Of a stretch of DNA of 64,000 nucleotides, positions 5,727 through 64,000 are shown piece after piece. The notes beneath the pieces are model-generated. The model had not been told where the DNA came from. It saw only the letters and a list, made by a program, of their open reading frames with translations, and did not search any database. The stretch covers positions 8,945,612-9,009,611 of the forward strand of contig CM082594.2 in the NCBI GenBank assembly GCA_040954595.2. The letters run 5' to 3'. Each line of letters starts with the position of its first letter. Position 1 is the stretch's first letter. This DNA comes from Balanoglossus misakiensis (Eukaryota; Animalia; Hemichordata). The translations under genes and the position numbers were made by a program.

Positions 5727-8700
5727 CTGTATGATGAAAACAAATGCACCAATTAATGCACAGTAATTCCACATTGTACCAGTATTTTTTGTTAAATCAT
5801 TGAATCATACAACTTAATGCAAAGAAATGAAAACAAACATAGGAGCACAGTGGTATATAATGTGTTTAGTGAGTCACTGTCCACAAACCCTTACAAAAAC
5901 ATTCCATAGGCATCTATAGAATTCTATAGGTTACTGAATTTCTATAGAAGTTTATAGAATTTCTCGACGTCTATAGATTTCTATGAAGTTTTGGACCCCT
6001 TTTCTATTGAGCAGCAGTATAGTATAGTATTTTAACCAGGAAAACTGAATCTAGTGTATGACGTCACTTACAGCAAATTTATAATCAACAACGTCACTTC
6101 CTTCGACATATTCTGCATAGTTACAGGTACCGTTGTTTTGGCACTGGCAGAGTCGAACTTCGGGTATTAAGGTAGAGAGTGCTTGACCATCTGATGCTGT
6201 GTAGCCTATACGGACAGGGTCCAAACTTTCTGGTGTCCATACAAAAGTTCCATCTGTGAAATATAAAATAACAGTTGCATGGAAAAGATCTTCTACCAAA
6301 CAGTGTAGTGGAATATCATCGCTATGTCTGCCTACAATATGGGCCAGTCTGGAGATCTACTCCATGCTGTTGTTCCATGCAAAACAGCCAAAACAAGCTA
6401 GAGATATTGTCAAACCTGCTTTCGTGTAAAGTTATACAACTGAGTAGATAGCTACAGCTTATGCTGTGGTTTCTGTATGGAAATAATGAGTCTATCTAGT
6501 AGGTGTACCAGTACTTACTTGGATATATAGTTGCATTTTGTGGAACTGGACTTTTCAGAGAATATTCAATAAAGCTACCCTCGACATCAGTGGCGTACAC
6601 GTCAATGACAACCTGCTCGCCAACGCTGGCATTGATAACCGTGTTAGCATATAAAGATGGTGGATAGTTCACTGTGGAAAAAATAAAGTTCTGGTTTAGC
6701 ATATATCAGTATTCCCCATTGTATAGGTCATTACAGTCTGGTCTGTGTTTTATTTCACATTGTAATGACTCACAGATAGACAATCTTGAGAATCTGCGAC
6801 AACTGACTGAAACAATGTGCGCACAATAAGTGGTTGGAGAAAGTTAATACCATCATACCTAGATCTTCTGAGTCCTTTTGTAACTGTTCCGAGGTGATTT
6901 TTGTGGCTTCTCCAACAAGTGGGTTACTAGTTGTCAACGTGTCGTACAAACATTGCAGGTTGCTTCCACAGACTTCTTCAGCAACTTGAATAATTGTGTC
7001 TGGACTGGCTTCCCTGACTTCGTCAAAAAATGCTGGCACGAAATCGTTAACGTTGTATGTTTCCCATGACGTGCCATTATCGTAGATGAAAAGGGATTCT
7101 GTTTCTGTAACTTTCCCTGCAAAAGGCAAACATGATAGATTACAGTCTGTCGTTTTACAAGTTCGCAATGAAAATTACACCTGCACCACATCGGAAACAA
7201 GCTATCACATTTCCCATTAAGCACCTGCTAACGACTTAATCTGTGTACCCCACAGGGGATTAAGTTGATAAAGTAAACTTGCAAGAAGCAGTACTCAGTG
7301 TATATGCTATCATTCATGTCAGAAAGACTTCCTGCATATGGCTACCTACATGTTTGTCCAAATTTAAAGTAGTCCGCCTCGGTCAAATTTTGTCCGGCTT
7401 CCGACGGTTGCTGATATGTCCCGTTGCGCCTAAGGAAGTCATCGGCCGGGTTGTCATTCCACACACCGAGAAGTCCCCTTGTTTTGTTTTTGTATGGGTC
7501 AGGTGCTACAAGTGCAGCATCTAACATTCCCTCTGTAATGCACACAGACACACCAATGCCAGAGGAAAACACTGCCATTGTCCGAGTGAGATTCGATGGT
7601 ACTTCTACTTTAAGGTAAAACTGGACATCGATGAATTCATCAGAAGAAAACACATCTGCAATACAAGCATACAGTGCACAGTATAACTTTACAGTTTGAG
7701 ATACTTAAAGGTATATGGCTACCTGTACAAATTTAGCATCACAAACTGTCAACTGGATGCCCGTGAATAAAAGCCCCACATTGCCGTTAGAAGACTTGCA
7801 AGATACATGTATTGTCCTTTTAACCATACAGGAGCAAGTGACAATTAAAGATGATTGTATTCCTTTAATGCATACCTTCTGAAAGTGCACTCTTATTGAA
7901 CTCCTTGCCATCAACTAAGATGCTGTAATCCGTACCATTTTCATCCATTGTGAATTGCACCTGTGCATGATTGGGAAATAATCAAATGACAAAATGATCG
8001 GCATAGCTAGTTGTGTTCTGCAGATATGTGAATTATAATTTGATGTTTCCAAAATGAAGGTCAGAAATTCAACCAAGACTTGTCGTGTTTACGATATACT
8101 TACGATCGAAGAGCCATTCTGTTGAGCGACGAAGGCTGTAAAGATGGTAGCATTAGACTGTTCGCCACTTGCAGTTCTAAATCTTGACGTCCTGGCTTGC
8201 AATGTAAATTCGCCAGTAATGACTTCCACCAGTATGTATTCACCCAAACCATTAAATGTGTACGTCGCATTGTCAAGTGTTGTAATGTGTGGATCACCGA
8301 ACATAAAGCCTGCAAAAAATCAAAGTGGAAGAGTTTAATGCACCCAGCACATCAACTTTATTTTCAAGTTTACCGACCTTTATTAGTACAGTAACACATA
8401 CAATGGAAAGCAAACAAATCACTCTGAATAAGAATTGTTGATTTACTGAATTTTTATCCGAAGTTCCTGTGTACAGTTGGAGAGAAATACCATGTTTCAG
8501 CAATCCTACCTATTTTAGGAGGCTTATAACCAGTACAGCTTCCTCTTGGACGTTTCTCTTCATACATCTCACAGAAGGCAGGATCGCTTGAGGCGTTGCA
8601 ACAAAAATATCGCGGCAACACATCTTCATCTGATAAAATTTAGAACAGTAGAAAATTGACAATGTAATAAAGCTTTTGCTGTACTAAGTTTAAGGCGGTC

Positions 8701-11700
8701 CAAATAGTTAAATTTTAACAGTCTCGCATTTAGAATGAGTCAATATATACCGGCACTATGAATGTGTTATAAAAATATCCATTTGCAATTTTTCTAAGAA
8801 TCCTTACCAATCCACTGGAGGTATGATGTGTAATCAAAGAATCCAGCTCTGTTTATCCATTGGTAGCGCTCCATGTAACTGCTTTCCCACAAAGTCTCGT
8901 AGCCATCAATGAAGGAGTGGTCGTCACGATAACAACACCGCTGTCCAGCACCAAAGGCATTTGAAAATGACGTCTGCAGACAGAAACCTTGACCTGGAAA
9001 GTGGACAAGGATTATAAATTTTGTAGTGTGTTTGCAATCGCTACTGAATTTGTAAAACTCAAATATTCCTAAATACAGCTGTGTGGAAATCTTTGCAGTA
9101 GTGTATTACAATTACCTTGCAGTAAATCTATTACTCTCATCAGCCGGCGATCGACGCCCATTATATTGCCATTGCTGAACAGTCTGTCGGTCAATGCTTC
9201 ATCGCCACGACGACCTCTCCCGAAAGCTGCGTCATTACGCCCTTGGCCAAAACCGCACGGACAGAATCCCAAGTCGTCATTCCAATCACTGGGATCAGGC
9301 TGCTGATTGTACCAGTTCAGACACTCTTGCTTCGCGTTGAAAGTATCCGGTACATTATCCTCAACGCGGAATATCCAACGACCTTTCAATCCAGTATTTC
9401 CGTCAAACTGGTCCGGTCTGTACCGCTCATCAATCCCATTAAAATTCAACTGCGCATTTTCAATCTCACTCTCTATTCCTCTGCCACTGTTGTAGCCAAT
9501 AATGGCCCGGTTCAGGCTTGTGTATCCTCTGACATTGTAAAGCCAACGCATTTCATCTTCCATAAAGTTTATCAACACAAAACCGTACTTCCCATCCGTT
9601 GCCAATATTCCCTGAAATGTATTCGGCTAAAACGGGAGAAAAGGAAGACGACATGTATAAAGGTTTCTGAAACAATACAAACATTTATTACCAGAACACT
9701 CATAATAATTTGCCCTCTAGACTCACCGAATCTTTGGTATATTCAGCGAAAAAAAGCGGGACCTGGTACCAGGTAATCTTTAGAATCCAGCTGGCCTCAA
9801 AGCTGGCGAAGTCAGAATCAGGTTGATCGACACTGGGATATTGTGACTGGATTCTTGTATTGACGTCTTTCACCATGGCAACATCTTCATCTGACAAAAA
9901 TGCTGATGTATCATATTCCTGCAGCACAAGAATGCAGCTGTTACTTATCACGAAGTAATGCGTGTGCGTGTATGTACATTTTATGTTGCATGAATTGTGA
10001 CAATATACCTTATAGTACACCGCTCCGGAGTCAGCAAGTCCCAAGTCCACATCATCCCAGAATATTGCGATCATTGGTATTTCTTGATCTGTTGTAAAAC
10101 CATCAGGAAACGGATACGGGAAGGGATACTTGTCGCCATTTTCATTGATAAATACGATCAGACCATTGTCTGTAAACTGCAGCAATGAAAGACAAGTAAA
10201 CATGATTTACGGATAGATATATGATAACCTATTCTATGTATAAACACACATGAAAATGTTGACTATGAAAATAACATTAATACCAAGGCTATTGTACTTT
10301 GTCAAATGAACGCAAATACAGTATACTTACATACAAACTGTAGTAAAACTCTCCCCAGAATGGAAAGCCAAGTGGTGGGTTTATTGTCGGGGACACCAAG
10401 TCAAACATTCTGTTGGATCTTCTATCTTCTTTCATTTCACGAAGAGTCCAATCCCCATTCTCTGGTCCAAAGGGGAACATAATGATTTCTGAAAAAAGAA
10501 GTAATTATTTTTCCATCGGATGTTTTGGCATACAATGCTGAACATGTTTTTATGTTCCAATAAGTTGCATATTACATGTAAAATACTGTGAAATTGGCGA
10601 TATATACCTTTGCATGCAAAGCCATCTCCTCTATAGCCATCAACACATGTGCAGTTATAGTCCCCTAGAGTATTGGTACAATTTGCTTTGACGTCACACT
10701 TCGAAACACCAAGTGCACATTCATCAATGTCTGAAAAGAAATACAAGCATCTGTCTTACTTTGAGGAAGTTGTAACAATAAAATACCCATATTTCATTGC
10801 TTTAAAAAGCTGTGTGTGTGTATGTAAATCTGTGCAAGCAAAGTATATGTGATGTGAACAGACAGGCAAAAGATAAGAACCTTGTTCACAGCTGGATCCT
10901 GTCCATCCGTCTTTACAAAAGCACTGATAGCTGCTGATGTAGTCTTTGCATGTTCCACCATTTTCACATGGAGTAGATTCACATTCATTGATATCTGTAA
11001 GAAGCAATATTAAAAAGTAATAGAGACAGTATAGCAGAATGGCAAATTGTAAAATTAAATAATCAGAAGTAGCATTTGGAAAATAAACATTTCTGTTAAG
11101 TGTCTATGTAGTGCATCTCACCTGTACATGTAACGTCATTTGCATGCAGACTGTAACCATCGTAGCATTGGCATGTGTATCCATTATCAGTAACTGTCGT
11201 GTTAACATTGATGCATATTTGATCGCAGTCATTCAAAGTGATACTCCCACACTCATCAATATCTGTAAAGAAATGAGAGCAAGAATAGAAGATTTTGTCT
11301 TTACCAACTGACACACACAGATCTATATCTAGTACCACACAGGCTAATTTTAGTCCTAAAGATGTGTTTTGGATTCATATGAACAAAATATAGCTGCAGA
11401 ATAAACATAACCAGCTCAACACATTACATTTAATACAGACTTAGACTAAAGTCCTCTGCACAATTACCTTGGTGACAGTAGGCGCCAGTCCAACCAGGAT
11501 CACATTCACATCTGAACATGTCTATCATATTAATACATTTACCAAACAGACACGGATCACTGGCACATTCGTCGATTTCTGCGGAGGAAATAAACACCCA
11601 ACCTTATCAGTTTCTTGTTTGAGCTACAATCACACAAGATGTAAAATCAGAAGAATGTGTCATTCAAGTTTATTCAAGCACTACATGCTTACCTATATCA

Positions 11701-51010: not shown

Positions 51011-51016
51011 TTTATT
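51011..51016 (-). terminator. Polyadenylation signal AATAAA of EctC-like paralog A
   Basis: TTTATT on the + strand, ~130 nt past the stop codon. Confidence 0.55.
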
Positions 51017-51145
51017 TTCCAATACTACCATTATTAACATGACAATGCTGTATACGGATATAATACCATTCTTCTTTCATTTCTAAGACCTTGTGTTTTC
51101 TCTCAAGAAGGGGAGGGGGCGTTCATAGCCCTTTAACAGTCATGG

Positions 51146-51895
51146 TTATTCAGGAAGTTCATATGAGGAATATCCCTCACTCCATACATGTCTCTCCAAT
51201 CCTGTTATAGTCGGAGAGAAAACGCATATGCATAAACTAGTCTCTGCTGCCACAGCTTCGTGTTTATCGTGTTGGTCCATAATGTAAGCGGTTCCATTGA
51301 CATGAGATTCAACCGCTTTAGCGCCCTCATCCCATTCATACGTCACCTTCCCAGCGAAGTAGTAAGCGGACTCTAAGTGGTTCAGGTAGACCATTCTGGA
51401 GCTTGTTCCGCCCCTGACAAGGGTGTTTGTCAAGCTCACGGGGAACCCGTCTGATTTCAGCAGGAAACGCCGACTGTCCCCGGAGCCCCAGTCGACGCTT
51501 CTCTCGGTGCCGATGATTTCCGACAGGGACCGACAGACAACACGGTCTTCTTCTGGCTTGATATCTTTGCAGTATACCACATACACGCGAATGCGTGACT
51601 CCACCAATAACTTGGCTGAGATGCCAGAAGAAAACGCCATCATTTGATCCGCATCCACTTTGATCGACTGACCACCAGGAATCTGCACACTACCTGTGCC
51701 TGATATGCAGTAATACATGTGATTCAACTTTTCCACTTCCGACGATTTCAGGTTGACAGTTTCGCCAGCCTCGATGAAGACCTCATAGGCTGTATGATTC
51801 ATGTTGTCAGCCTCTGCTACCAATTCTTTACCCTTCAATTCTGTGTTTGGAAGGACAGTGGTGGCAGACACCTCTTCAGAATGACGCGTAATCAT
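51146..51895 (-). CDS. ectC-like: Ectoine synthase (EctC)-like tandem double-cupin protein, paralog A (249 aa), CDS intronless
   Basis: C-half RSLSEIIGTER.VDWG.G.SRRFLLKSDG...YLNHLESAYY...GTAYIMDQHDKH...CVFSPTITGLERH matches recalled EctC motifs (YxNHLE, GTxYxLDxHDxH, CVFNPPxTGxExH). N-half MITR...EAGE...YYCISGTGSV is a degenerate second copy. Start context GCCATG. Confidence 0.88.
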   Translation of the reverse strand: MITRHSEEVSATTVLPNTELKGKELVAEADNMNHTAYEVFIEAGETVNLKSSEVEKLNHMYYCISGTGSVQIPGGQSIKVDADQMMAFSSGISAKLLVESRIRVYVVYCKDIKPEEDRVVCRSLSEIIGTERSVDWGSGDSRRFLLKSDGFPVSLTNTLVRGGTSSRMVYLNHLESAYYFAGKVTYEWDEGAKAVESHVNGTAYIMDQHDKHEAVAAETSLCICVFSPTITGLERHVWSEGYSSYELPE

Positions 51896-51916
51896 GGCTA
51901 CTGGTCTTTCTGTAGT

Positions 51917-52900
51917 CTGTCAAATAATTAAAATGACTGAATCAAAAAACTAGTATATAGCCATCGCTCATTTTTTCTGGTCGTGTTTCCCGTGGCTAGT
52001 GCATGTTCATGCATGTAACAAACGAACTTATCTAAACGCATGAATGGTATACAATCCCCCTTTAAAGTTCATGGATTCGCCTGGTGCCTGGACCGTCCAG
52101 CAAGTCAGCAGAACCGCGTGTGCATTGTGTTTTCTTGGTGTGGCCCCATTAATTATAAATAAGTCACGCGAGCTACTTGGCCTACAGACTGACAGATAAG
52201 CATGCAGTCCAAAGACATCTGGTAAAATTAAGCAGTTAAAAGTGGCAGTTAACGTTCCTCGTACATTACGGAAACAGATTCAACCAATTAAAAATAGTTT
52301 GCGAACTAATCACCGATTCTTTCAAATAATTCTAATCGTGGACAAAGTGGGCGTGTCCCCAGCGCGGTAGGCGACTGGCAGCCATGGCCATACTTAACCT
52401 TTATAAGCCATCAGAACAAGTGAAACAACGGCTGTTATTAAGAGTTTTCGTGGTCGTCGTAGGTCCTTTGTGGCTCTATTGTGATGTCGTTTCATTTCAG
52501 TCCTGCCTTTTAGATCCATGGTCCTGCTAACACCACGCTCGCTCGTACCGAACCAAGTTTTATCCGGGCTATGAGCTGCGCTGATAACCTTCGGGCGGAT
52601 CGCGAAAATTACGGGCCGAAATCTACACAGGCCGAAACAACCAGTTTACCGAGGGTCCATGGTCAACTATGCGTCTCATTAAACAACCTACCTCCTGATC
52701 GGTATATTCCCAAATCCTCCTTATAAGCAATTCGCTCCGCGTAAGTACGCTGCCACAGACTATCAGATAGTTACGTCACTGACCTGGTTAACTGCCCTAA
52801 TCCTATTTGCCCAGGGACCTTGTTAGCATACTGTCAGTTGTCATTCAAAGTAGGTAGACTTAATTTTAGCCTCATTGTGAAGAGGAGAACCAAATTGTAC
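51917..52900 (-). promoter_or_regulatory. Paralog A: 5'-UTR intron (51917-52691), non-coding exon 1 and putative proximal promoter
   Basis: Acceptor TTATTTGACAG| 21 nt before the ATG; donor GAG|GTAGG at 52692/52691. Segment 52695-52895 aligns by eye with 54215-54435 of paralog B. Confidence 0.65.
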
Positions 52901-52990
52901 GTGATGTAACTTGCAAAAAATATATGATACAGGTACTGCGTGTGTGAATGAAATATTGAAGTAAAAGGCTTACTTATGATGCACTGTCAT

Positions 52991-52996
52991 TTTATT
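52991..52996 (-). terminator. Polyadenylation signal AATAAA of EctC-like paralog B
   Basis: TTTATT on the + strand, ~136 nt past the stop codon, an equivalent position to paralog A. Confidence 0.55.
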
Positions 52997-53131
52997 TTTA
53001 AGTTAACATCGTGGTAACATATTCACAAAATTTACAAGGCCAACAAGGACATGAAATGTCGGGGAGACACTTATTATGCCCTTTCGGTATCCAATGGTAT
53101 ATATGTCATCGTTTCATTTTCATGACCACTG

Positions 53132-53890
53132 TTATTCAGAGGGTCCAAAACCAGAATAGCCACCATGGAATTCGTGATTCTCAGAGCCAACCAAGACGGG
53201 GTGGAAGACGCAGAGACAATAACAGTCTTCTGAGGCCACCAATTGATGGTTATCATGTTGGTCCATGTTGTAGATTGTGCCCTGGTTTGGTCCAACACGA
53301 GATTCTACCACTTTAGCGCCCTCATCCCATTCATATTTAACTTTCCCGGCGATGTAGTAGACCGATTCCAAGTGATGCCTGTAGCCTAGCTTGGAACCAT
53401 GACCACCTTTGGCATAGGTGTTATTGAAGCTCACGGGGAACCCGTCTGACTTCACCAGGAAACGACGACTGTTTCCGCGACCCCAGTCGATGTCCCTTTC
53501 AGTGCCAATGATTTCTGACAGGGACCTACAGACAACACGGTCTTCTGCTGGCTTGACATCTTTGCAGTAAACCACATAAAGGCGAATGCGAGACTCTGCC
53601 AATAACTTGGCTGAGATGCCAGAAGAAAACGCCATCATTTGATCCGCATCCACTTTGAACGACTGACCAGCAGGAATCTTCACACTACCTGTGCCTGATA
53701 TGCAGTAATACATGTGATTCAACTTTTCCACTTCCGACGATTTAAGATTGACAGTTTCGCCAGCCTCGATGAAGACCTCATAGGCTGTATGATTCATGTT
53801 GTCAGCCTCTGCTACCAATTCTTTACCCTTCAATTCTGTGTTTGGAAGGACAGTCGTGGCAGACACCTCTTCAGAATGACGCGTAATCAT
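53132..53890 (-). CDS. ectC-like: Ectoine synthase (EctC)-like tandem double-cupin protein, paralog B (252 aa), CDS intronless
   Basis: Same architecture as paralog A: GTERDIDWGRGNSRRFLVKSDG...YRHHLESVYY...GTIYNMDQHDNH...CVFHPVLVGSENH. Confidence 0.88.
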   Translation of the reverse strand: MITRHSEEVSATTVLPNTELKGKELVAEADNMNHTAYEVFIEAGETVNLKSSEVEKLNHMYYCISGTGSVKIPAGQSFKVDADQMMAFSSGISAKLLAESRIRLYVVYCKDVKPAEDRVVCRSLSEIIGTERDIDWGRGNSRRFLVKSDGFPVSFNNTYAKGGHGSKLGYRHHLESVYYIAGKVKYEWDEGAKVVESRVGPNQGTIYNMDQHDNHQLVASEDCYCLCVFHPVLVGSENHEFHGGYSGFGPSE

Positions 53891-53915
53891 GGCTACTGGT
53901 CTTACGTACTGCAGT

Positions 53916-54440
53916 CTGTCAAATAATGAAATGTTAAAACATTATCAATATTGCTATTATTCTATTTTTTCCGGTCATTATAACCGTCCAATGTCAGGCG
54001 ATGTGCTGGAAATTTCGGTTAGTAGAGTGTGATTGATTACACGAGACTTGTATAGCCTTATCTCAAAGAGGCAGTAACCCCAGACGATTACAAATTTTAC
54101 CACCGAACTTGTTAGCCAAAATAGGCAATTTCAATGTCAGTATTGAACATTTTGCCATCCGTGAAACATACGTTGTATTTGAATCATAATGAATAACTTA
54201 TTACCTCTACTTAAATGATCGGTAAATTCCCAAATACTCCTGACAAGTAATTCGCTCCAGATATGTACGATGTGCTGTCTGGCCGTTTGTCACAGAAAAT
54301 GGCACAGCTCAATAGCAGTGCGACCTAACCTTTTTGCCCCGCAGGACCTTTGTAGCATGGTCACGTGCACGTTACTAGTCAGCTGTCACTCTAACCTAGG
54401 TAAACTTTAGCCTAGTTATGAAGTGGAGAAACAAACCGAG
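53916..54440 (-). promoter_or_regulatory. Paralog B: 5'-UTR intron (53916-54204), non-coding exon 1 and putative proximal promoter
   Basis: Identical acceptor TTATTTGACAG|; donor GAG|GTAAT at 54205/54204. Shared blocks with paralog A (+ strand): TGATCGGTAwATTCCCAAATmCTCC, AATTCGCTCC, GGACCTT, TTTAGCCT, TGAAGwGGAGAA. Confidence 0.65.
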
Positions 54441-55792
54441 CGTGCAGAGGTAAACTGCAAAATCTATACAATGCAGTTTATACGCCCAGAAGAGCACATT
54501 GGTAAACAGGTAATGAATTTGTGGCTGGTATGTTATGGTACATGGTGCGCGCATCAGGTGCAAGTGGGGCTGGTATAGTGAAGTTTGCTCTCCCCAATCA
54601 CAACCTAGAACAATCTGACTCCGTTATTGCCACAAGGTGACCCCTGGCCAAAGATAAGGTGACCTCTGTCTGAAGGAAATGGCCGTCCTCTAAGTACTGT
54701 GGACAATATCGACAAGGTGGGTGCCAGTTTCAAGCTGACACCTGTCTGTTTCAGTGTTTGTTTTCTGCAAAAAAATGGCAGGCGTCTGTCTGAAACTGAC
54801 ACCGACCTTGTTGATTTCATCTATGGTATCTAAGCGACTGAAAGGCTGCTAAGTAATGAATTCTTTTATTCCTGTCATGTCTAAGAGACTAAAACTTTAT
54901 TTGATTGCAAATCCTTCTCTTTGAGAAGCAGTTTTTATATGGTACAAGACACTCACATGACTTGAGCAGAGTTCAAGAATATATATATAACCTTTATTGG
55001 TGCAATCATATCATTTATTCAATGCATGATACATAAATTCTGTAAAAAAAGTGTTGATAAAATTGCTTGAAAAGATAGCATTTGACCCAGCAGCCTCTAA
55101 GTACATAAACTATGTGAATAACCACCAGACATGTTCATCTTCTGATACTTGAAACCTTTCCATCCCCATTTCCTTAGTTTCAATTCTCATTATTATAAAA
55201 GTGAAGGGTATCAAAATAAACTTCCCACATCATGGTGCAGAATCATCTGTGAATTTTACAGCCACAGACTACTTCTATGTAAATAACTCACAGTAGATGG
55301 AGTTGTTTATATAAAGAAAAAAATTAGCACCTACCCAATCAAATATCTTTGTACATGTTAAAATAGCATTTCTGCTTGTGTAAAATTTTGAAATATGAAA
55401 ATAGAAACACAGATATTGTTGTTGTGTTACATTATCACCATATTATTGAATCCAACTATTTTTGTTTGTTAGTGTCAACTACCATAATCCCACATTAGTT
55501 GATTTGTACATTAGCTTATTAATCCGATAATCAATTTCTGTACTGGTTATGCTAATACCAGTCCACACAAATGCAAATTTCAAAAATGGCAGTAGAAATT
55601 GCATTAATGTGTTAAAAGATCAACCAGTTCACTCTAGAGTTACACATTCTATCACTGGCTTGTGTTGTCAATGAAAACATGATCTCGCCACTGACTACTG
55701 AACTCTATAGGTATCCCTAATTTCTTGTTAGAGCTGTACCATACCCAACTTCACTGGAAGACATTCAATGTGATTGTTGTTGTTAAGAGGAT

Positions 55793-56677
55793 TTAGGACT
55801 GGTTCTCTATGAACGATGTGTGTGCTTCATTGGGTAGTGTATTTTCATCAGTGTCAGGTAGGGTCACATCTGTAGCAATCTCTCCGGTCACTTCAACCAC
55901 ATCATAAGCGCAGAAGTCTTCCAGATCCAGTTTGGAACACAGCCAGCCGTAGAAGCCCTTCTCAAAGTCTTTGAAGTCTCTTTTCCAGGATGTGAAAAAC
56001 CAGGATATTTGGACAAACGCAGCGTACAACGCAATGCCTAATGTCAGTAGGACTATGGCTGGCGGGTAGAAAATGATGAGCACTGGACACAGCAGTATTC
56101 TGTACGCGATACCTTTGTCGTCGTAATAATGAACAAAAACACCGTACCATGTGATGGTTCCCAGGTAACCAGAAACGACAAAAGACGTGACGAAGGCAAC
56201 CGGAATGCACAGTAAACTAAAAAGGAAGACATGAATGCCCTTATCAAAGCCCCAGACACAATCATCCGGTGTGTCCTCGTGAGTCAGTGATTTCAGATTA
56301 TCTTCCGAAATAGTGACTTGGATATCTTGGATTTTCTTTCCGCGTCGAATCGTTCCCGTCAGCGTAATGCTTTTCCCACCGACAGATGACGTTGTAGTGT
56401 TGATGGTATCTCTACTCTGACTCAGTTCTTCAATAGTATCATCATGTCGGCTTACTGACGAATCGTTCAGAGTGTCGCGCCAATACTCCGATGAACCCTC
56501 CTTCACTTGATTATCTGCTGCTTGTTTCTCAAGTAAATGCACATCGCTTTCCTTTACGGTCTGTGCTTGTTCCTCTGCATTTCTTCTTTCTCTTTTCAGC
56601 TTTTCTTTTTTGATAATCTTCTCAGCTGGGCTTGGCCCATGTTCTCCCTGCTTGCTTTTATCAGGTGACTTTGGCAT
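55793..56677 (-). CDS. TMEM169: Transmembrane protein 169 (294 aa), single coding exon; 5'-UTR intron ~56715-57127
   Basis: Motifs ITLTGTIRRGKK, GTITWY, CPVLIIFYP, LYAAFVQISW, EKGFYGWLCSKLDLED match recalled TMEM169. First ATG (MPKSPDK) is at 56677; the track start at 56704 is a TTG. Acceptor TCTCAG| at 56715 and donor CAG|GTAAAA at 57127. Confidence 0.92.
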   Translation of the reverse strand: MPKSPDKSKQGEHGPSPAEKIIKKEKLKRERRNAEEQAQTVKESDVHLLEKQAADNQVKEGSSEYWRDTLNDSSVSRHDDTIEELSQSRDTINTTTSSVGGKSITLTGTIRRGKKIQDIQVTISEDNLKSLTHEDTPDDCVWGFDKGIHVFLFSLLCIPVAFVTSFVVSGYLGTITWYGVFVHYYDDKGIAYRILLCPVLIIFYPPAIVLLTLGIALYAAFVQISWFFTSWKRDFKDFEKGFYGWLCSKLDLEDFCAYDVVEVTGEIATDVTLPDTDENTLPNEAHTSFIENQS

Positions 56678-57127
56678 GATGATAATATATGCAGTGTCTT
56701 TCAAACTTTCTAACCTGAGAATACAAACATATTATTGGAGTGATGTCATAGTTCTTTGGCAGGAGGCAGAACCAAACCTATAACCCTGTTATGATCTTTC
56801 CATTAGACACTGCTTTCTGTGCCATGACAATGTGACCATGGAAGTACCTTTCAATGGCGTGGCCATGGATGATGACCGGCTACTTCCATTCAGGGTCACT
56901 CCACACCACACACACTGGACTGGTATCTGATTATGGATGTGTACTATAATCAGACTGTACATCCATGGTCTAAAGTAGACGACCCCAACATCATGCAAGT
57001 TCACAGCTGGGTTTGACATTCTAAATAAGATTGAGAAGACATCCCACAATCATATTGACATTGGTTAGGTTCATTGAGTTCATGTTTAACGCCCTGTTTT
57101 CAATAACAAATACTCTTTCACTTTTAC

Positions 57128-57551: not shown

Positions 57552-59716
57552 ATGGCGGACGACGATGATAGCATTTGGAGAACTACCCAAGATCAACAAC
57601 AGGTAACTTTCGCGTAAATCGTTCGTACTTAAAGCATACCAGTGAATGTCATGGATCCCATAGAATTTGTGCTAGAGTTAAATGACTTTGCGCGAGATTT
57701 TTTAACGTTCGTAGAAGACTTTGACCTGGCACATGTATATGTAGTTCGTTGCCACATTGGTCTGATCGCACGTACGACACAACAATAACACAGCCCACCA
57801 ATGGAAACAATATTGAGCTGAAGGTCTTCTCATTATAACGACTTGTGCTCATGTCGTAACTAGTCGGTTACGTGTCCTGATAACATTCTCCATTTTCTTA
57901 CAGACTACAGGGTTTATTGTCGGCGGCGATGGCTTGGGCGACTCAAGTTTTGACAGTACGTAAAGAAAGAATAAGTTTGATATTTACATCATTCTATTTC
58001 CGGTCAAAATAATATCAAAAATTCTGATATAGACTCACTGTAGATTGTTATCAGGGTTTCTGAGATACTTGACCTGTGTCAAAAAATAATCTCAAGATAC
58101 ATTTGCATCTCGTGCAATAATGATTGATGTTCAATGACGTATACATGTACATTACAATTTACATCAAGTCAGCGATATTGACACCCCACAGTGTGTTTGT
58201 TCTGCATGCAAGCATTCCAGATTACAGGCTTTGCTTACTGTCAGAAATTTTGTCTGTGTGTATTCAGTTGACTTGATTAATGGAGAGATGAAAATCGAAG
58301 CAACCAGTCCGACTGCTGTGGGAAACCAAAATCAGACCAGGTTTAATCTGGGCAGAAATAGTACTAGTAGCAGTACATCATTGACTCAGAATGACAGTAA
58401 TGCATCCCTTATACTGACAGGTAAGGGTGTCTGTGGGCATGCTGATAAAAATGTAAACGGAAAGAAATACGCAATTCTTTAACGTCTAAGCAGGCAAGAC
58501 ATGTCTGTATGAAATTTGTACTGTGACCAGTCCATGTTTCTTCATAACCTGTTTTTCTGTCATCTGTTCAAACTGGTAACCATACTCTTTTCTTCTTTCA
58601 GATGATGACGATGATGACAATACAGCCAATGTGAAAATGTACAGGGATAAAAGGAGGAGTGCCCACACTGCAGCTGAGCAAAAGAGAAGGGATGCCATCA
58701 AGGTAATGGAGATAATAGTAGCGCTGTCTGCATTACATTGTTGTATGAAAATGCTGCTAACACAGTGCAGGCACGTTCATTGGGTCCTGCTGTCAGTGTC
58801 ACCATACTCTAAGCGTGTGAAAAATTGTGAGTACAGTGTATTATGTGTGAATATGGATGTTTTTTGTGTGATTTTATCAGAAAGGATATGAAGACCTGCA
58901 GAACATAGTACCAACATGTCAACAAACAGACGCAGTGGGATCACAGAAGCTAAGCAAAGCTGCCATCCTGCAGAGGTCAATTGATTACATCAAGTTTTTG
59001 GGTCAGCAGAAAAAGAAACAAGAAGATGAACTTAGCGCACTTAGGAAAGAAGTCATGGCACTGAAAATCATGAAAGCGTAAGTGTCCATCCGTTAACGGT
59101 CAAAGATCGAATGATGCAAGTGTTCATATGGTCACTCTCCACCCAATTTGACACTCGTCAAAGTGAGAATAATTTTTAATTTTTTCCTATTCAGGAATTA
59201 TGAACAGATTGTAAAGGCTCATCAAAACACACCGGCAAGTGGCAGGAATCAGATATCAGATGAAGTCAAATTTCAAGTGGTGAGTAGGATTTCGCATTTG
59301 TAGCATTACAGCTCCTCACAAAGAATATCATTGAATCTGTATGTGATGGTTATTACACATCCCATTGACATGTTGACATTCTTTTTTCCAGTTTAAATCC
59401 ATAATGGATGCTCAGTTCCAGTCCTTCAACGCATCAATATCAGTGGCCAGTTTCGCTGAACTGTCAGGATGCGTGTTCCATTGGTTGGAGGAATGCTGCA
59501 AACCACAGGTTGGTGTCCAAACTAAATTTCATATACATGTACATGCTATCAGCACATAGATGCACAGCTCACAATCCATGCCTGCACAGAAGTTTTCACA
59601 GTGATATCCACAGTATTTTACTCCAACACTTACATTTTTTCTATTTTTAGGCACTTCGGGAACTGGTCCTTGGTGTTCTGCGAGCCACAAACCATCAACT
59701 TTTCAGCAATGTGTGA
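57552..59716 (+). CDS. MLX: Max-like protein X, bHLH-Zip; 8 exons: 57552-57602, 57904-57955, 58268-58420, 58602-58702, 58881-59077, 59195-59279, 59392-59508, 59651-59716
   Basis: Basic region RRSAHTAAEQKRRDAIKKGYEDLQNIVPTC, HLH KLSKAAILQRSIDYIKFL, zipper LRKEVMALKIMKANYEQIVKAHQ, and C-terminal VKFQVF...FAELSGCVFHWLEECCKPQ. All junctions are GT-AG and in phase. Confidence 0.95.
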
Positions 59717-60874: not shown

Positions 60875-63800
60875 TCACAGATGTTCGAGAGCATTTCTGA
60901 GTCGTCTCATTCCTTGCAGGGTTACAATGCCGAGATGTTGAACGACGTAGTTATAGAAAAACTCTGGAGCCTACAAATGACAACAGAATAAAATCATTTC
61001 AGAATTTTGCTGATAAAATTTGAATCATTAATTGAATGTGAACAGATGCGAATCAATATTAAAAATCGATTCTGAGTATGACCTGATTCTCAAATAACAG
61101 AGCAACATTTGTGAATTAAACGTGTCTGACCTATGTTTCACTCATGACCTTTTAGCAGTGTAAATAAAACAGAATGAGTCAAGCAGAGAAAGGTGGGTAC
61201 AAATGTGATAAATGACAGGATGTATTCTTGGTCGGAGTCAGATTACATTTTTTGTAACTCACAAAAGACCGGACAGCTGTGCAGTGCTGATACAGACATT
61301 TTGTTCACATATTTCATATTTACCTCTTCTCTAAGTTTCATTAGGAATATGAGGTCTTCTCCAGTGATTGCTTGCTTGGATTTTCTGAAATGAACAAATA
61401 GCAATTGCGATGACATTCAGTGATTTAGGATAACAGTAAGTTGAAGAGTATGTTGAGGTTTGAGGTTTGTCGACATAAGATTTGCACTAACAACATCAAT
61501 ATGCAATAGGCAAGAGAAAATGTCATCATTAAAGTGTGTGACTGTAGTGATGATGATGGTACTCACAGTTCGATGCCGTTGTCTTTCATCCAATTTTTGA
61601 CCTCACTTTCACTCCACTTGTTGGCCGGGTGAGAAGCAGTTGTTGGTCTGCCAGTCGACACAGCTGAGGTCGCTGCAGCCACAGTTTCACTTTCCACAGC
61701 AGAGACAGTAGCTCCGCTGTTCACTGGTTTCGCTCCCATCTTGCCTCGTTCTCCGAGCTCTCTTACAAGTTGCTTCATGCACGTGCCAAAGTTAGCGCCC
61801 CTTTTCGCTAGGTTGATGTAGAATTTTGTTCCCACGATTGCGCCTAGCCATCCACTGGGTTTATATCGCTCTTCAACCATGAGCGGAACCACATCCTTCC
61901 TCAGTTGAAACGCATACTCTGCCTCTGTGAAGAGAAATGCCAAATTATCGTTCGACTTGCCATCCACAAATACACAATAAAACATTGTGCAACTGTATCA
62001 CCTACAAGTTGATGAATGAACAAAATGAGAATCTAAACAGAGATGCAGTAGATCAACACCACTTCGACCTAAATCACAAGCGAATGAACAATATTCATCA
62101 CTTTGCAATTTCAAATGGCAAAATCCATTAAAAATGTTTTGAATGTCATTGATAGATTTATGATTATGGGCAATATACTGACCTACTCTACAATTTGGAC
62201 TGTCTTTATATTTCTGTGACACACACATCAAGACTACTGCAGCATTTTCAACTGCGTCTGCCATTGCCTGCAATGTTGATCCTCCCATCTGCTCCAAGTC
62301 CATCCAAACTCGGTAGCCATTCTTTTCCAGGTGCTGTTTTACTTTTATCATCAAATTCTGCACATCCCATTGGTAGCTGATCATCACGTGTTGACACTCG
62401 TCACGTGTTTCCGCTTCCTCTCCGTGTTTGTCTGCATGTTTGATGATGATGATGATGATGATGGTGGTGGAAATAGAAAAGGGTCATTGCGGTAATTATA
62501 TGCCATTTCATTTTATCTATTGCAAACTATTTATCTCATTGTTCTTGAAAATGAAACACGACAATTAAAACTGTGGAAGGGGAAGAAGACATTCCTGCTT
62601 ATCAGTTGTGCCTTACCTCGTAATTCTTTTTGGCCTTCAAGTACCCACAATGCACCATTTGCTGCTTTCTGCACATCCTGACTTGGGTGAGTCTTCAGTG
62701 ATTCAATCTTTTCCATGGCGCCCGGTTGCTGTTTAATTTTCTCTCTGCTGTCGTCATCGAACGCCAGGTTCCAGATAGTTTTGACGGCGAACAGCTTTTC
62801 CTTCTCGTCGCCTTCGTCCATGAGGTTGACAAGCAATGGCAGAGTCCCCGCCTCGATTATCTTTGGTTTGTTTTTGTCGTTGTTGGCAAGACATGAGAGC
62901 GCTTGGGCGATCTCCTGTAAAACATATGCGGTCAAAATAACTGAGTATTCTTAGCCCGGCATAACACACAGCAGAAAGGAAAATACATCCCCTAAAAAAC
63001 AAGGACACCAGGCCAAGAGACTGGGCTCGCTCATCAGACAAAAATCTCTCCTACTCTTAGCCTTACCTCGGCCGATATTCCAGCGTCTGATGACGTCTTA
63101 TCCGTCGACCTCAACGCCTTTTTCAAATGAAGGCTCAGGAATGCGATGATGTTATCATCGGCTGCGATGATATCACTCTGCTCATCGTCTTCATCCACCA
63201 GATAAGCTAGAGCCATGTATGTAATAGATTTGCGCATAATTTCCGACGACTTTGTGTACGGCACAAGGGCTTTGATTGTATCGTGTTCCGCGAAAAATTG
63301 GCGGCTCACGCCACCTTTTGCACAGTTGCTCACAATGGATAAACATGTCACCACGAAAACAGAGTCGATCTGTAAAGTAAGAAAAGGAAATAACATTTAG
63401 TGGCCTAGAACGTTACGTATAAACTGTACATGTATGTCACTTCTAACGAGCAAGTTTAATTGAATGTTGTAATAATTTAAGGCATTCCTGCTTAATATCA
63501 AGAAAGAAATGAACAAAAATAAGTAAAAAGTATACAAACTTAACTTAAAAAGCCAACAATGCCAAGATACAATGAGAATATAGGGAAGGACCTCAAAAGA
63601 AGGAAGTAACCCAGTGGGCCATATGTCTTACCTGGTTCAAATGAGGGCTATTGTTATTGATGCATTTCTCGTTCTTCAAATGTTGTATAATCATTCCTAA
63701 AAATCCTGTTTCCCGACACTGCTCACAAATCAGTGAACTCCTGTCCGAAAGAGAAGTGATGATGTCCGCACAGTTGATGTAAGTGATGAAAACTTGCTGG

Positions 63801-64000
63801 TTTCTGTCCAAGGGCCCCGTGTTTTCCAACGCCTGGCAGTACCTGTTGATGGTGTAGACAAACTTGTCATACGCCAGCTGGTCACAGAGGAGCCGACGCT
63901 GTTCTTTACTTCTGTAGGTCATAGCAGGTGACCTGACCTTTACGTCAACTTCATTGTACACCTTCTCCAAAGAATCGGAAGACGCTGGGTTTTCACAACA
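60875..64000 (-). CDS. ARM-repeat / TIR / SAM-like protein, 5' end outside window; exons >64000-63632, 63369-63067, 62914-62617, 62431-62183, 61924-61567, 61384-61324, 60970-60875
   Basis: ARM repeats (ALSCLANNDKNKPKIIEAGTLPLLV, TIWNLAFD, AANGALWVL); TIR (HVMISYQW...GYRVWMDLEQMGGSTLQAMADAVE...SQKYKDSPNCRVEAEYA...VPLMVEERYKPSGWLG); SAM-like tail (WSESEVKNWM...ITGEDL...LRNALEHL*). Exon phases are consistent. Confidence 0.88.
62441..62470. repeat. Short intronic (GAT)n/(GGT)n microsatellite next to the TIR-exon acceptor
   Basis: Directly visible. Confidence 0.8.

Follow-up and report, generated by a model that had tools for sequence, protein, structure and literature searches.

Why should two neighboring genes be almost identical over their front halves and strongly diverged over their rear, catalytic halves, and do the two enzymes differ in what they do? 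The question is raised by genes A and B in a 64-kb stretch of the genome of the hemichordate Balanoglossus misakiensis (64,000 nucleotides, here called the window), of which an initial annotation had been made from the letters alone.

Two tandem genes for double cupins

Genes A and B form a tandem pair on the minus strand with their ATGs 1995 bp apart (Table 1), and a tblastn search of the window found these two copies only. Both reading frames are intact, gene B having a deletion of three codons relative to A. Non-homologous DNA begins 14 nt upstream of the ATG, and the intron interior and the 3' flank cannot be aligned. The introns had initially been described as largely unalignable (775 versus 289 bp), and indeed their best local alignment has a score of 21, no better than those of 200 shuffles (mean 19.7, maximum 27). 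The global-alignment identity of the promoter regions (177/233) was discounted because the unrelated 3' flank also reached 104/157. Neither ectA nor ectB was found among the six neighboring ORFs scanned.

Table 1. Features of genes A and B, in positions of the window
Feature	Position	Strand	Description
Gene A, coding exon	53132..53890	-	252 aa; double cupin with EctC domain; "N/H-type" pocket: N156, A160, G247-F248
Gene B, coding exon	51146..51895	-	249 aa; double cupin with EctC domain; "T-type" pocket: T156, V160, S-Y at A-numbered 247-248
A, inferred gene-conversion tract	53528..53903	-	13 nt before the ATG plus codons 1-121, the degenerate front cupin
B, inferred gene-conversion tract	51533..51908	-	limits as in A
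A, catalytic EctC-like domain	53132..53527	-	codons 122-252; predicted iron ligands E175, Y207, H215
B, catalytic EctC-like domain	51146..51532	-	three predicted iron ligands as in A
A, codons 154-169	53384..53431	-	strand with the Asn38/Thr40 equivalents and the next hairpin
B, codons 154-169	51389..51436	-	hairpin equivalent to that of A
A, predicted 5'-UTR intron	53916..54204	-	289 bp, GT..AG
B, predicted 5'-UTR intron	51917..52691	-	775 bp, GT..AG
A, putative non-coding first exon and promoter	54205..54480	-	homologous to B: blastn match of 57 bp, 82%, E 2e-9
B, putative non-coding first exon and promoter	52692..52960	-	homologous to A
A, candidate poly(A) signal	52991..52996	-	
B, candidate poly(A) signal	51011..51016	-	

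Both proteins contain two barrels per chain, a degenerate front cupin followed by an ectoine synthase (EctC) domain. PF06339 is found above its gathering score in both (117 and 102.6 bits, cut-off 27), the curated cut-off of NCBIfam PRK13290 (128 bits) is missed by both (120 and 110.3 bits), and the rear domain matches EctC at E 1e-18. The Pfam EctC match begins at residue 121, and the first rear-domain strand of the model is 119-123. In a profile comparison the front domain matches the rear domain with a probability of 98%, the iron ligands E/Y/H of the rear pairing with H59/M86/A94 of the front; Y37 and R103 of the front half are invariant across the family. By fold, the whole chain matches bicupins (1sfn: Z 22.8, rmsd 2.8, 217 aligned), and EctC chains are absent among the matches listed, which is no argument against kinship. 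A single-sequence structure model of B has a pLDDT of 40, and the ESM Atlas returned generic bicupins and, at rank 15, a 51-member bacterial "putative ectoine synthase" cluster, which is a lead only.

The reference for the rear domain is bacterial EctC (PF06339; Paenibacillus lautus 5ONM/5ONN/5ONO, Sphingopyxis 5BXX), which is a single cupin of about 130 aa forming a head-to-tail homodimer and is usually encoded in an ectABC operon, whereas A and B are double cupins of about 250 aa with a degenerate front barrel. The front barrel is very probably a copy of the EctC barrel that has no iron and takes the place of the second subunit in the bacterial dimer, and it would for this reason be interchangeable between paralogs. 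The equivalents of Glu57/Tyr84/His92, Ser23, Arg25, Thr40, Tyr52, His55, Cys104, Phe106 and the lid Glu/His are kept in A and B. The two differ from EctC in falling below the NCBIfam cut-off, in the Gly at the aligned Trp21 position and, in B, in the Thr replacing Asn38.

Front and rear halves within one exon

On recount, the numbers of the initial annotation proved exact: 7 amino acid differences in codons 1-132 and, in codons 133-252, 48 differences over 117 aligned codons together with an indel of three codons. The accompanying statement that there are very few synonymous changes holds up to codon 121 and not to 132, since codons 1-132 contain 13 silent differences, 6 of them in codons 122-132, which puts the break at the DNA level at 121/122. 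Silent differences number 5/109 before and 33/77 after this change point (support 118-125). The change-point statistic was reached in 0 of 5000 permutations for either silent-site set, and a Sawyer-type statistic in 0/5000 and 14/5000. The nucleotide identity of A and B is 96.1% in codons 1-121 and 68.8% in the rear domain; the contrast between the halves is beyond chance. The silent-site break falls at the domain boundary and within one exon, so that introns cannot account for the limit of conversion.

Silent divergence climbs along the gene (pS 0.065, 0.23, 0.52, 0.69). At four-fold sites a smooth increase from 5' to 3' is as good a fit as a step (logL -36.8 vs. -37.3); for codons of the same amino acid the step, which has one more parameter, beats the gradient (logL -72.9 vs. 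-76.0). The front halves differ at 14/363 nt, of which 6/291 are in codons 1-97 and 8/72 in codons 98-121. For the rear half, dN is 0.30 and dS 1.24, and the dN/dS of about 0.24 shows that the rear domain is under purifying selection, with no sign of positive selection in the rear half of this pair.

Collapse of two copies during assembly had been named as an observation that would overturn the initial annotation, and it is not borne out by the contigs of public data (three runs of one sample, possibly the source of the window). They fit a true two-copy repeat, in which the front-half letters of each gene are bridged to their own rear half without differences (X1 record 5 = 53103-53628; X3 record 17 = 51071-51663). 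Both intron contigs stop exactly 30 nt inside the shared sequence (k-1 for 31-letter words), as is expected from such a repeat. It should be noted, however, that among the contigs listed no single one runs from the intron through to the rear half. One X1 contig is A-type except at codons 74 and 78, where it has the letters of B, a mixture that graph simplification could also yield. Other-haplotype letters in B that equal A (codons 104, 112 and 174) were considered as shared polymorphism and rejected, because a retained ancestral base gives the identical pattern.

Active sites and paralogs in other deuterostomes

The metal ligands had been regarded as fixed, and they are: the equivalents of Glu57, Tyr84 and His92 are E175, Y207 and H215 in A, with the aligned residues in B the same. 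The substrate/product contacts examined were Ser23, Arg25, Asn38, Thr40, Tyr52, Phe106 and Trp21; five of the six that can be mapped are also identical in A and B, only the Asn38 equivalent differing (N in A, T in B), and in all eight of nine mapped ligand positions agree. At the Trp21 position there is Gly, with W136 three residues earlier; two-residue shifts of Trp21 in some orphan EctC proteins are noted in passages of the orphan-EctC literature. The motifs quoted in the initial annotation as changes in predicted pocket strands (SLTNT/SFNNT, SRMVYLNH/SKLGYRHH, AYIM/IYNM) are present, but the differences between A and B show no enrichment in the pocket (1/9 for the ligand set, 4/12 for the second shell, 10/16 for the lid and 30/87 for the rest, the sets being drawn from EctC papers and strand alternation and not from distances). 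Nor are they enriched in the hairpin 154-169 (10 of 45 differences, 8.0 expected, P = 0.19).

Other species were compared by means of 22 selected proteins, 15 of which were used for separate trees of the two halves. The closest relative of the A and B proteins is from Ptychodera flava. The rear halves of A and B are 60% identical, and that of A is 59-62% identical to those of Ptychodera, of four Glandiceps proteins and of one of three Saccoglossus proteins; the enzyme halves of A and B are no closer to each other than those from different genera. The front halves are only 39-67% identical between species and thus show no special conservation. The trees, which had been proposed as a check, are in conflict: A and B are united at 99/98 by the front half and not joined by the rear half. 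This does not mean that the rear tree establishes a duplication before the species split, because A and B as one rear-half clade are not rejected by the AU test (p = 0.11). The ratio of rear to front distance is 8.2 for A/B, whereas 202 non-independent between-lineage pairs do not exceed 1.33 (median 0.82).

The same polarity, alike in front and diverged in the rear, is found in close paralogs of seven out of seven genomes (A/B and six other deuterostome genomes). With one close same-contig pair per genome the rear/front ratios are 2.0-14.2, whereas 10 close pairs from different species range from 0.55 to 1.27 (Mann-Whitney p = 5e-5, or 0.007 with the least favorable Glandiceps pair). Of six Glandiceps pairs, one is reversed in polarity (ratio 0.5). 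The pairs in the other genomes were compared as proteins only, their tandem layout being deduced from shared contigs and adjacent accessions. In six genome-pair quartets, which are not independent, grouping by paralog type is backed by rear-domain sites in 21 cases and contradicted in 4, the counts for front-domain sites being 3 and 2; the type labels were picked from site 156 after the alignment had been viewed, and this site makes up 2 of the 21 concordant counts.

Differences are concentrated at 154-169 in two Glandiceps pairs (8/14, P = 0.0004; 12/36, P = 0.001) and in an amphioxus pair (10/26, P = 0.002). The concentration is missing in two of six other pairs tested (P = 0.76 and 0.56), and one more pair is weak (P = 0.037). 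Glandiceps 992714 and 992188 are the same at nearly every residue from 170 to 230, and their differences at 154-165 and 247-248 run in the same sense as those between A and B. Out of sample, the sea-star H-type proteins have V or L at 160 and mostly Y248, and the brittle star is without a T-type. Paralog-type residues near the substrate-binding strand (154-160) and in the lid tail (247-248) recur across genera, a pattern that selection against conversion would give, but in echinoderms they are only partly upheld.

Conversion, selection and chance

That gene conversion acts on the 5' coding sequence, as initially proposed, is well supported by the silent-site break, the unalignable flanks, the free divergence of front halves between species and the reality of the two-copy repeat. 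We are highly confident that the duplication of A and B is old and that the identity of the front halves stems from recent, repeated non-allelic conversion. On balance we favor that this conversion homogenizes a probably non-catalytic front domain and that selection removes tracts which overwrite two differently tuned active sites. Duplication of a double-cupin gene would have given A and B in tandem, repeated conversion would have kept the front domains alike, and tracts entering the rear domain would have been lost by selection, preserving two active sites. That selection and not chance confines conversion to the front domain is likely. The support for this part of the initial proposal is indirect, coming from the other genomes and not from the dN/dS of A/B.

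The strongest competitor, although unlikely, is neutral: conversion covered the whole gene until the rear half by chance passed a divergence threshold, to which the 9-bp indel or a gradient of conversion from the 5' end contributed, and A and B do the same job, differing if at all in expression. This would agree with the rise of silent divergence along the gene and the fit of a gradient at four-fold sites, with ligand residues almost all common to both, with diverged promoter regions and introns, and with the lack of pocket enrichment in A/B. It would not predict a break at the domain boundary, the same polarity in seven of seven genomes, or the Glandiceps 992714/992188 pair with its differences left at 154-165 and 247-248. 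Moreover, the front-half identity is not eroded next to the non-homologous DNA 14 nt upstream of the ATG, and edge effects therefore do not explain the asymmetry.

Quite improbable is one recent event, a single long conversion or double crossover that replaced the front half of an old paralog, with no ongoing homogenization and rear halves that are simply old. The better fit of the step to same-amino-acid codons and rear halves as distant as between genera would be accommodated. However, conversion requires long near-perfect homology, so that one exchange between sequences about 69% identical is unlikely; the uneven divergence within the tract (codons 1-97 versus 98-121) and the mixed X1 contig, if not a product of graph simplification, also speak against it. 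That the front halves are alike through strong purifying selection or assembly collapse can hardly be maintained in spite of the invariant Y37 and R103 and the lack of a listed contig joining intron to rear half, because silent sites are homogenized too, front halves diverge freely between species and differ here at 14 nt, and the bridging contigs and k-1 contig ends fit a real repeat.

It is plausible that A and B might serve two substrates or reaction directions, as had been suggested, but among the mapped ligand contacts the pair differs at the Asn38 equivalent only. Enzymes cannot shift an equilibrium, and opposite directions could therefore only mean different substrates or compartments. 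Tentatively, with chances slightly below even, both enzymes may use Fe(II) to close or open an amidine ring in metabolites of the N-acyl-diamino-acid type, not necessarily the ectoine precursor, and differ in the substrates they prefer, as determined by residues 154/156/160 and the lid tail. A wider view is doubtful: invertebrate deuterostomes might possess bacteria-related, single-chain, pseudo-dimeric EctC-like cyclases making non-ectoine cyclic amidines, with N/H- and T-type pockets side by side since before the acorn-worm families split, possibly since the deuterostome ancestor, and with conversion repeatedly rewriting the scaffold domain. If there are two such old pocket types, the surviving differences would show which residues govern specificity in orphan EctC enzymes and would hint at a small-molecule pathway in animals that is as yet unknown. 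The A/B pair is a natural swap experiment, with a near-identical scaffold and two catalytic domains, and several genomes nominate a few candidate specificity residues (154, 156, 160, 247 and 248). The question of substrates can therefore be put directly to just two small proteins. The pair also illustrates cleanly how gene conversion can halt at the border of a protein domain within one exon.

Selection opposing non-allelic gene conversion has been described for the R/S paralogs of ATP1A1 in Leptodactylus (bioRxiv 10.1101/2020.08.04.234435), whose copies, like those of A and B, lie in tandem and point the same way. There, most sites group by species and a few paralog-distinguishing residues are common to several species, these being 12 experimentally tested sites scattered along the gene. 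In A/B, by contrast, a whole domain escaped conversion, and the cross-genus sites are fewer, less strict and known from sequence alone. Orphan EctC-type genes without ectAB, of function stated as unresolved, and ectC-like genes in Branchiostoma and Saccoglossus are mentioned in passages of three papers that suggest related substrates (PMC4987115, PMC5924519, PMC6344544); these passages describe no double-cupin architecture, paralog families, conversion or pocket types. The word "ectoine" is absent from the main text and two supplementary files of the hemichordate genome paper (PMC4729200), although the gene may appear in its image tables or other supplements, as one GenBank entry carries the name "ectoine synthase-like 155." The conversion process is already known and ectC has been reported in these animals, whereas for the double-cupin architecture and domain-bounded conversion no account was listed in a literature search of sources outside subscription journals.

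Bacterial double-cupin EctC-like proteins were found in Mesorhizobium, Stappia and Granulosicoccaceae. They share the two-domain layout of A and B and form one clade with the animal proteins by their rear domain (SH-aLRT 100 in a quick tree, from which three near-duplicates and three proteins with degenerate catalytic residues had been dropped). Their genes sit in clusters of the secondary-metabolite type, apparently biosynthetic operons, and not beside ectAB, with one copy per locus fetched, unlike A and B. The Mesorhizobium protein has Cys at the Asn38 position, where bacterial EctC-like proteins with a single domain show all of N, T, H and C.

Mosaic structure of genes A and B

The window DNA is animal, and the genes A and B, which encode double-cupin EctC-like proteins, are arranged head to tail on its minus strand; no third copy was found in the 64 kb. 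Their putative first exon/promoter regions are homologous (57 bp, 82%, E 2e-9). In both proteins the Pfam Ectoine_synth match begins at residue 121, both match Paenibacillus EctC structures (E 1e-18), and both narrowly miss the NCBIfam cut-off. Among 21 relatives the closest comes from Ptychodera flava (64%), followed by Glandiceps and Saccoglossus, which makes an acorn worm the probable source of the DNA.

Features of the window and of bacterial loci (L numbers) carrying related genes
Feature	Position	Strand	Remarks
Gene A	CDS 53890-53132	minus	252 aa, one intact coding exon
Gene B	CDS 51895-51146	minus	249 aa, one intact coding exon
5' introns of A / B	upstream of each CDS		289 / 775 bp, GT..AG; homologous position, judged from sequence only
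TMEM169 family ORF, one stretch	55796-56731	minus	upstream of gene A
Short exon	58580-58700	plus	weak helix-loop-helix match, E 0.09
ARM-repeat + TIR-domain protein exons	61566-64000	minus	Arm E 2e-7, TIR_2 E 7e-17
Single stop-free reading frame	13326-44597	minus	10,424 codons
Conserved four-gene cluster, double-cupin EctC-like included	L001, L003, L007, L008, L009, L011: about 6000-11300		Mesorhizobium, Stappia
EctC-like gene + amino-acid adenylation protein	L013 2920-9692; L014 2326-6462; L015 977-4196; L016 2087-9081		

The initial annotation counted 7 differences in the first 132 residues and, in the remainder, 48 differences over 117 aligned residues together with a 3-residue indel. These counts are exact and the mosaic contrast holds, but silent sites put the break earlier than residue 132. 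Of the codons specifying the same amino acid in A and B, 5/109 differ up to codon 121 and 33/77 beyond, with the best change point at 121/122 (support 118–125), which 0/5000 permutations reached; four-fold sites (4/54 versus 20/34) break at 124/125 (0/5000). A step model beats a gradient on same-amino-acid codons; the two tie on four-fold sites. Nucleotide identity is 96.1% in the front half (codons 1–121) and 68.8% in the rear half, the EctC domain (codons 122–252). The mosaic is real and statistically strong. For the intron interiors and 3' flanks, alignment does not exceed that of 200 shuffled controls, and codons 133–252 (dN 0.30, dS 1.24) are under purifying selection.

An assembly collapse as the source of the 5' identity, which the same annotation named as a refuting outcome, is contradicted by contigs of three public runs (one sample, possibly the window's own source) aligned to the locus. 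Difference-free contigs link the rear half of each gene with its own front-half letters (53103–53628; 51071–51663), and contigs of both introns end 30 nt into the common stretch, which is what two entries into a single repeat should produce. None of the contigs listed from the three runs covers a complete gene. Other-haplotype variants of B (5 within 51562–51629) are about as dense as A/B differences (7 positions in 51562–51603), so that the front halves are about as similar as alleles. Record 6 of the contig set X1 (window 53625–53824; depth roughly 1.5–2x that of its neighbours) resembles A at codons 48, 49, and 71 and B at 74 and 78, either as a mosaic allele or as a result of graph simplification.

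Probable gene conversion and likely selection

The near-identity of the front halves very probably reflects gene conversion rather than constraint. Other species are 39–67% identical to A in the front half, similar to the rear half (41–62%), and the rear/front distance ratio is 8.2 for A and B, the median across 202 between-lineage pairs being 0.82. Rear-half identity between A and B (60%) is no closer than that of A to Ptychodera (59%) or Glandiceps (59–62%). Separate trees of the halves (15 proteins), proposed at the outset as a check, make A and B sisters by the front half (support 99/98; alternatives rejected, AU p = 0.012); by the rear half they are not sisters, yet this grouping is not rejected (p = 0.11).

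Theory covers divergence peaks and neutral escape from conversion. In tandem duplicates selection against conversion is established, the closest case to A and B among the sources consulted being Leptodactylus ATP1A1 (bioRxiv 10.1101/2020.08.04.234435). Literature searches listed nothing on EctC-like double-cupin architecture or on conversion among such proteins; ectC-like genes of Branchiostoma and Saccoglossus are mentioned, in the available parts of the papers, without animal experiments (PMC4987115, PMC5924519).

It is likely that selection acts on the catalytic domain; most of the evidence is from other genomes, compared as proteins only. Close same-contig paralogs share the polarity of A and B, with rear/front ratios of 2.7 in Glandiceps (range 0.5–3.3, six pairs), 2.3 in Saccoglossus, 2.3 in B. 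lanceolatum, and 14.2 in a Branchiostoma hybrid, with Patiria (2.5) and Amphiura (1.6–2.4) found later, versus 0.55–1.27 in close between-species pairs (n = 10; p = 5e-5, or 0.007 using the worst Glandiceps pair). Older same-genome pairs show slight or no polarity (0.84–1.8), and Glandiceps paralogs pair differently in front and rear trees.

Judged by residue 156, an N/H-type and a T-type paralog occur together in the window and likewise in each of Glandiceps, Saccoglossus, and B. lanceolatum. Over six non-independent quartets, rear-domain sites agree with this label 21 times and disagree 4 times, versus 3 and 2 in the front domain. The recurring sites are 154, 155, 156, 160, 247, and 248; residues 154–160 form the strand bearing the equivalents of Asn38 and Thr40, which in EctC touch the substrate carboxylate and alpha-amine (PMC6344544, in part). 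Differences cluster at 154–169 in 3/7 pairs (P 0.0004–0.002) and weakly in one more (0.037); clustering is absent from three, the window pair included (0.19). In two sea stars the T-type carries T154-T156-V160 and S247-Y248, but the small residue at 160 is missing from their H-types, most of which have Y248, and no T-type was found in the brittle star. The pocket types, defined after inspection, are real in part.

Catalytic residues are substituted in five proteins from Glandiceps, two sea stars, and further contigs (P0044, P0235, P0237, P0060, P0066), suggesting non-catalytic or re-purposed paralogs. Two Branchiostoma proteins (P0032, P0033), in which a repeat-rich N-terminal region is joined to the double cupin, are possibly merged gene models.

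Architecture and predicted activity

The AlphaFold2 model of A is a double cupin (19-sequence alignment, pLDDT 86, pTM 0.88), best matched by 1sfn (Z 22.8, rmsd 2.8, 217 aligned). A comparison of front- and rear-half profiles gives a match (hhalign 98%, E 3e-14) in which the rear iron ligands Glu/Tyr/His align with front-half H59/M86/A94. The bacterial enzyme forms a head-to-tail dimer (PMC6344544), whereas A and B have two predicted barrels in one chain; the front one, we infer, is an iron-free substitute for the partner subunit. The start of the second barrel coincides with the conversion break.

EctC-type Fe(II) amidine cyclisation is the predicted activity of A and B, because they agree at all three iron ligands and at the equivalents of Ser23, Arg25, Thr40, Tyr52, and Phe106; the mechanism is from PMC6344544 and the mutant data are from PMC4795551. 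The only mapped contact that differs is the Asn38 equivalent, a position occupied by H, T, N, C, or S in single-domain proteins of bacteria. EctC itself shows weak glutamine cyclisation and hydrolysis of ring-size analogues (PMC5924519, in part). A and B might act on distinct substrates. They are filed as EctC-like, not as ectoine synthases, since they fall outside the single-domain and NCBIfam definitions and their activity is only predicted.

Bacterial relatives and other features of the window

The family extends beyond deuterostomes to Owenia and bacteria. By rear domain, the double-cupin members fall into a single clade separate from most single-domain EctC (SH-aLRT 100, quick tree). Sixteen bacterial loci were fetched and selected ORFs scanned in 10. 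Directly downstream in 6/6 Mesorhizobium/Stappia loci lie a lysine/ornithine N-monooxygenase, an IucA/IucC synthetase, and a 2OG-Fe(II) oxygenase. In four other loci (L013–L016), possibly of a pyrrole-amidine pathway, the adenylation protein is upstream; three (L013, L014, L016) also have a PigA/RedW-like prolyl-carrier dehydrogenase gene below the curated cut-off, L014–L016 a TrpF-like gene, and L016 TrpA- and TrpD-like genes. No ectA- or ectB-type match was found among the ORFs scanned in the 10 loci. These gene neighbourhoods raise the odds that the substrates of double-cupin EctC-like enzymes are acyl-diamines different from the ectoine precursor.

The long reading frame of the window (27% Thr, 15% Ser) is composed of tandem units of 36/102/138/174 bp and is apparently a single mucin-type exon of ~30 kb, after which come many EGF-like exons.
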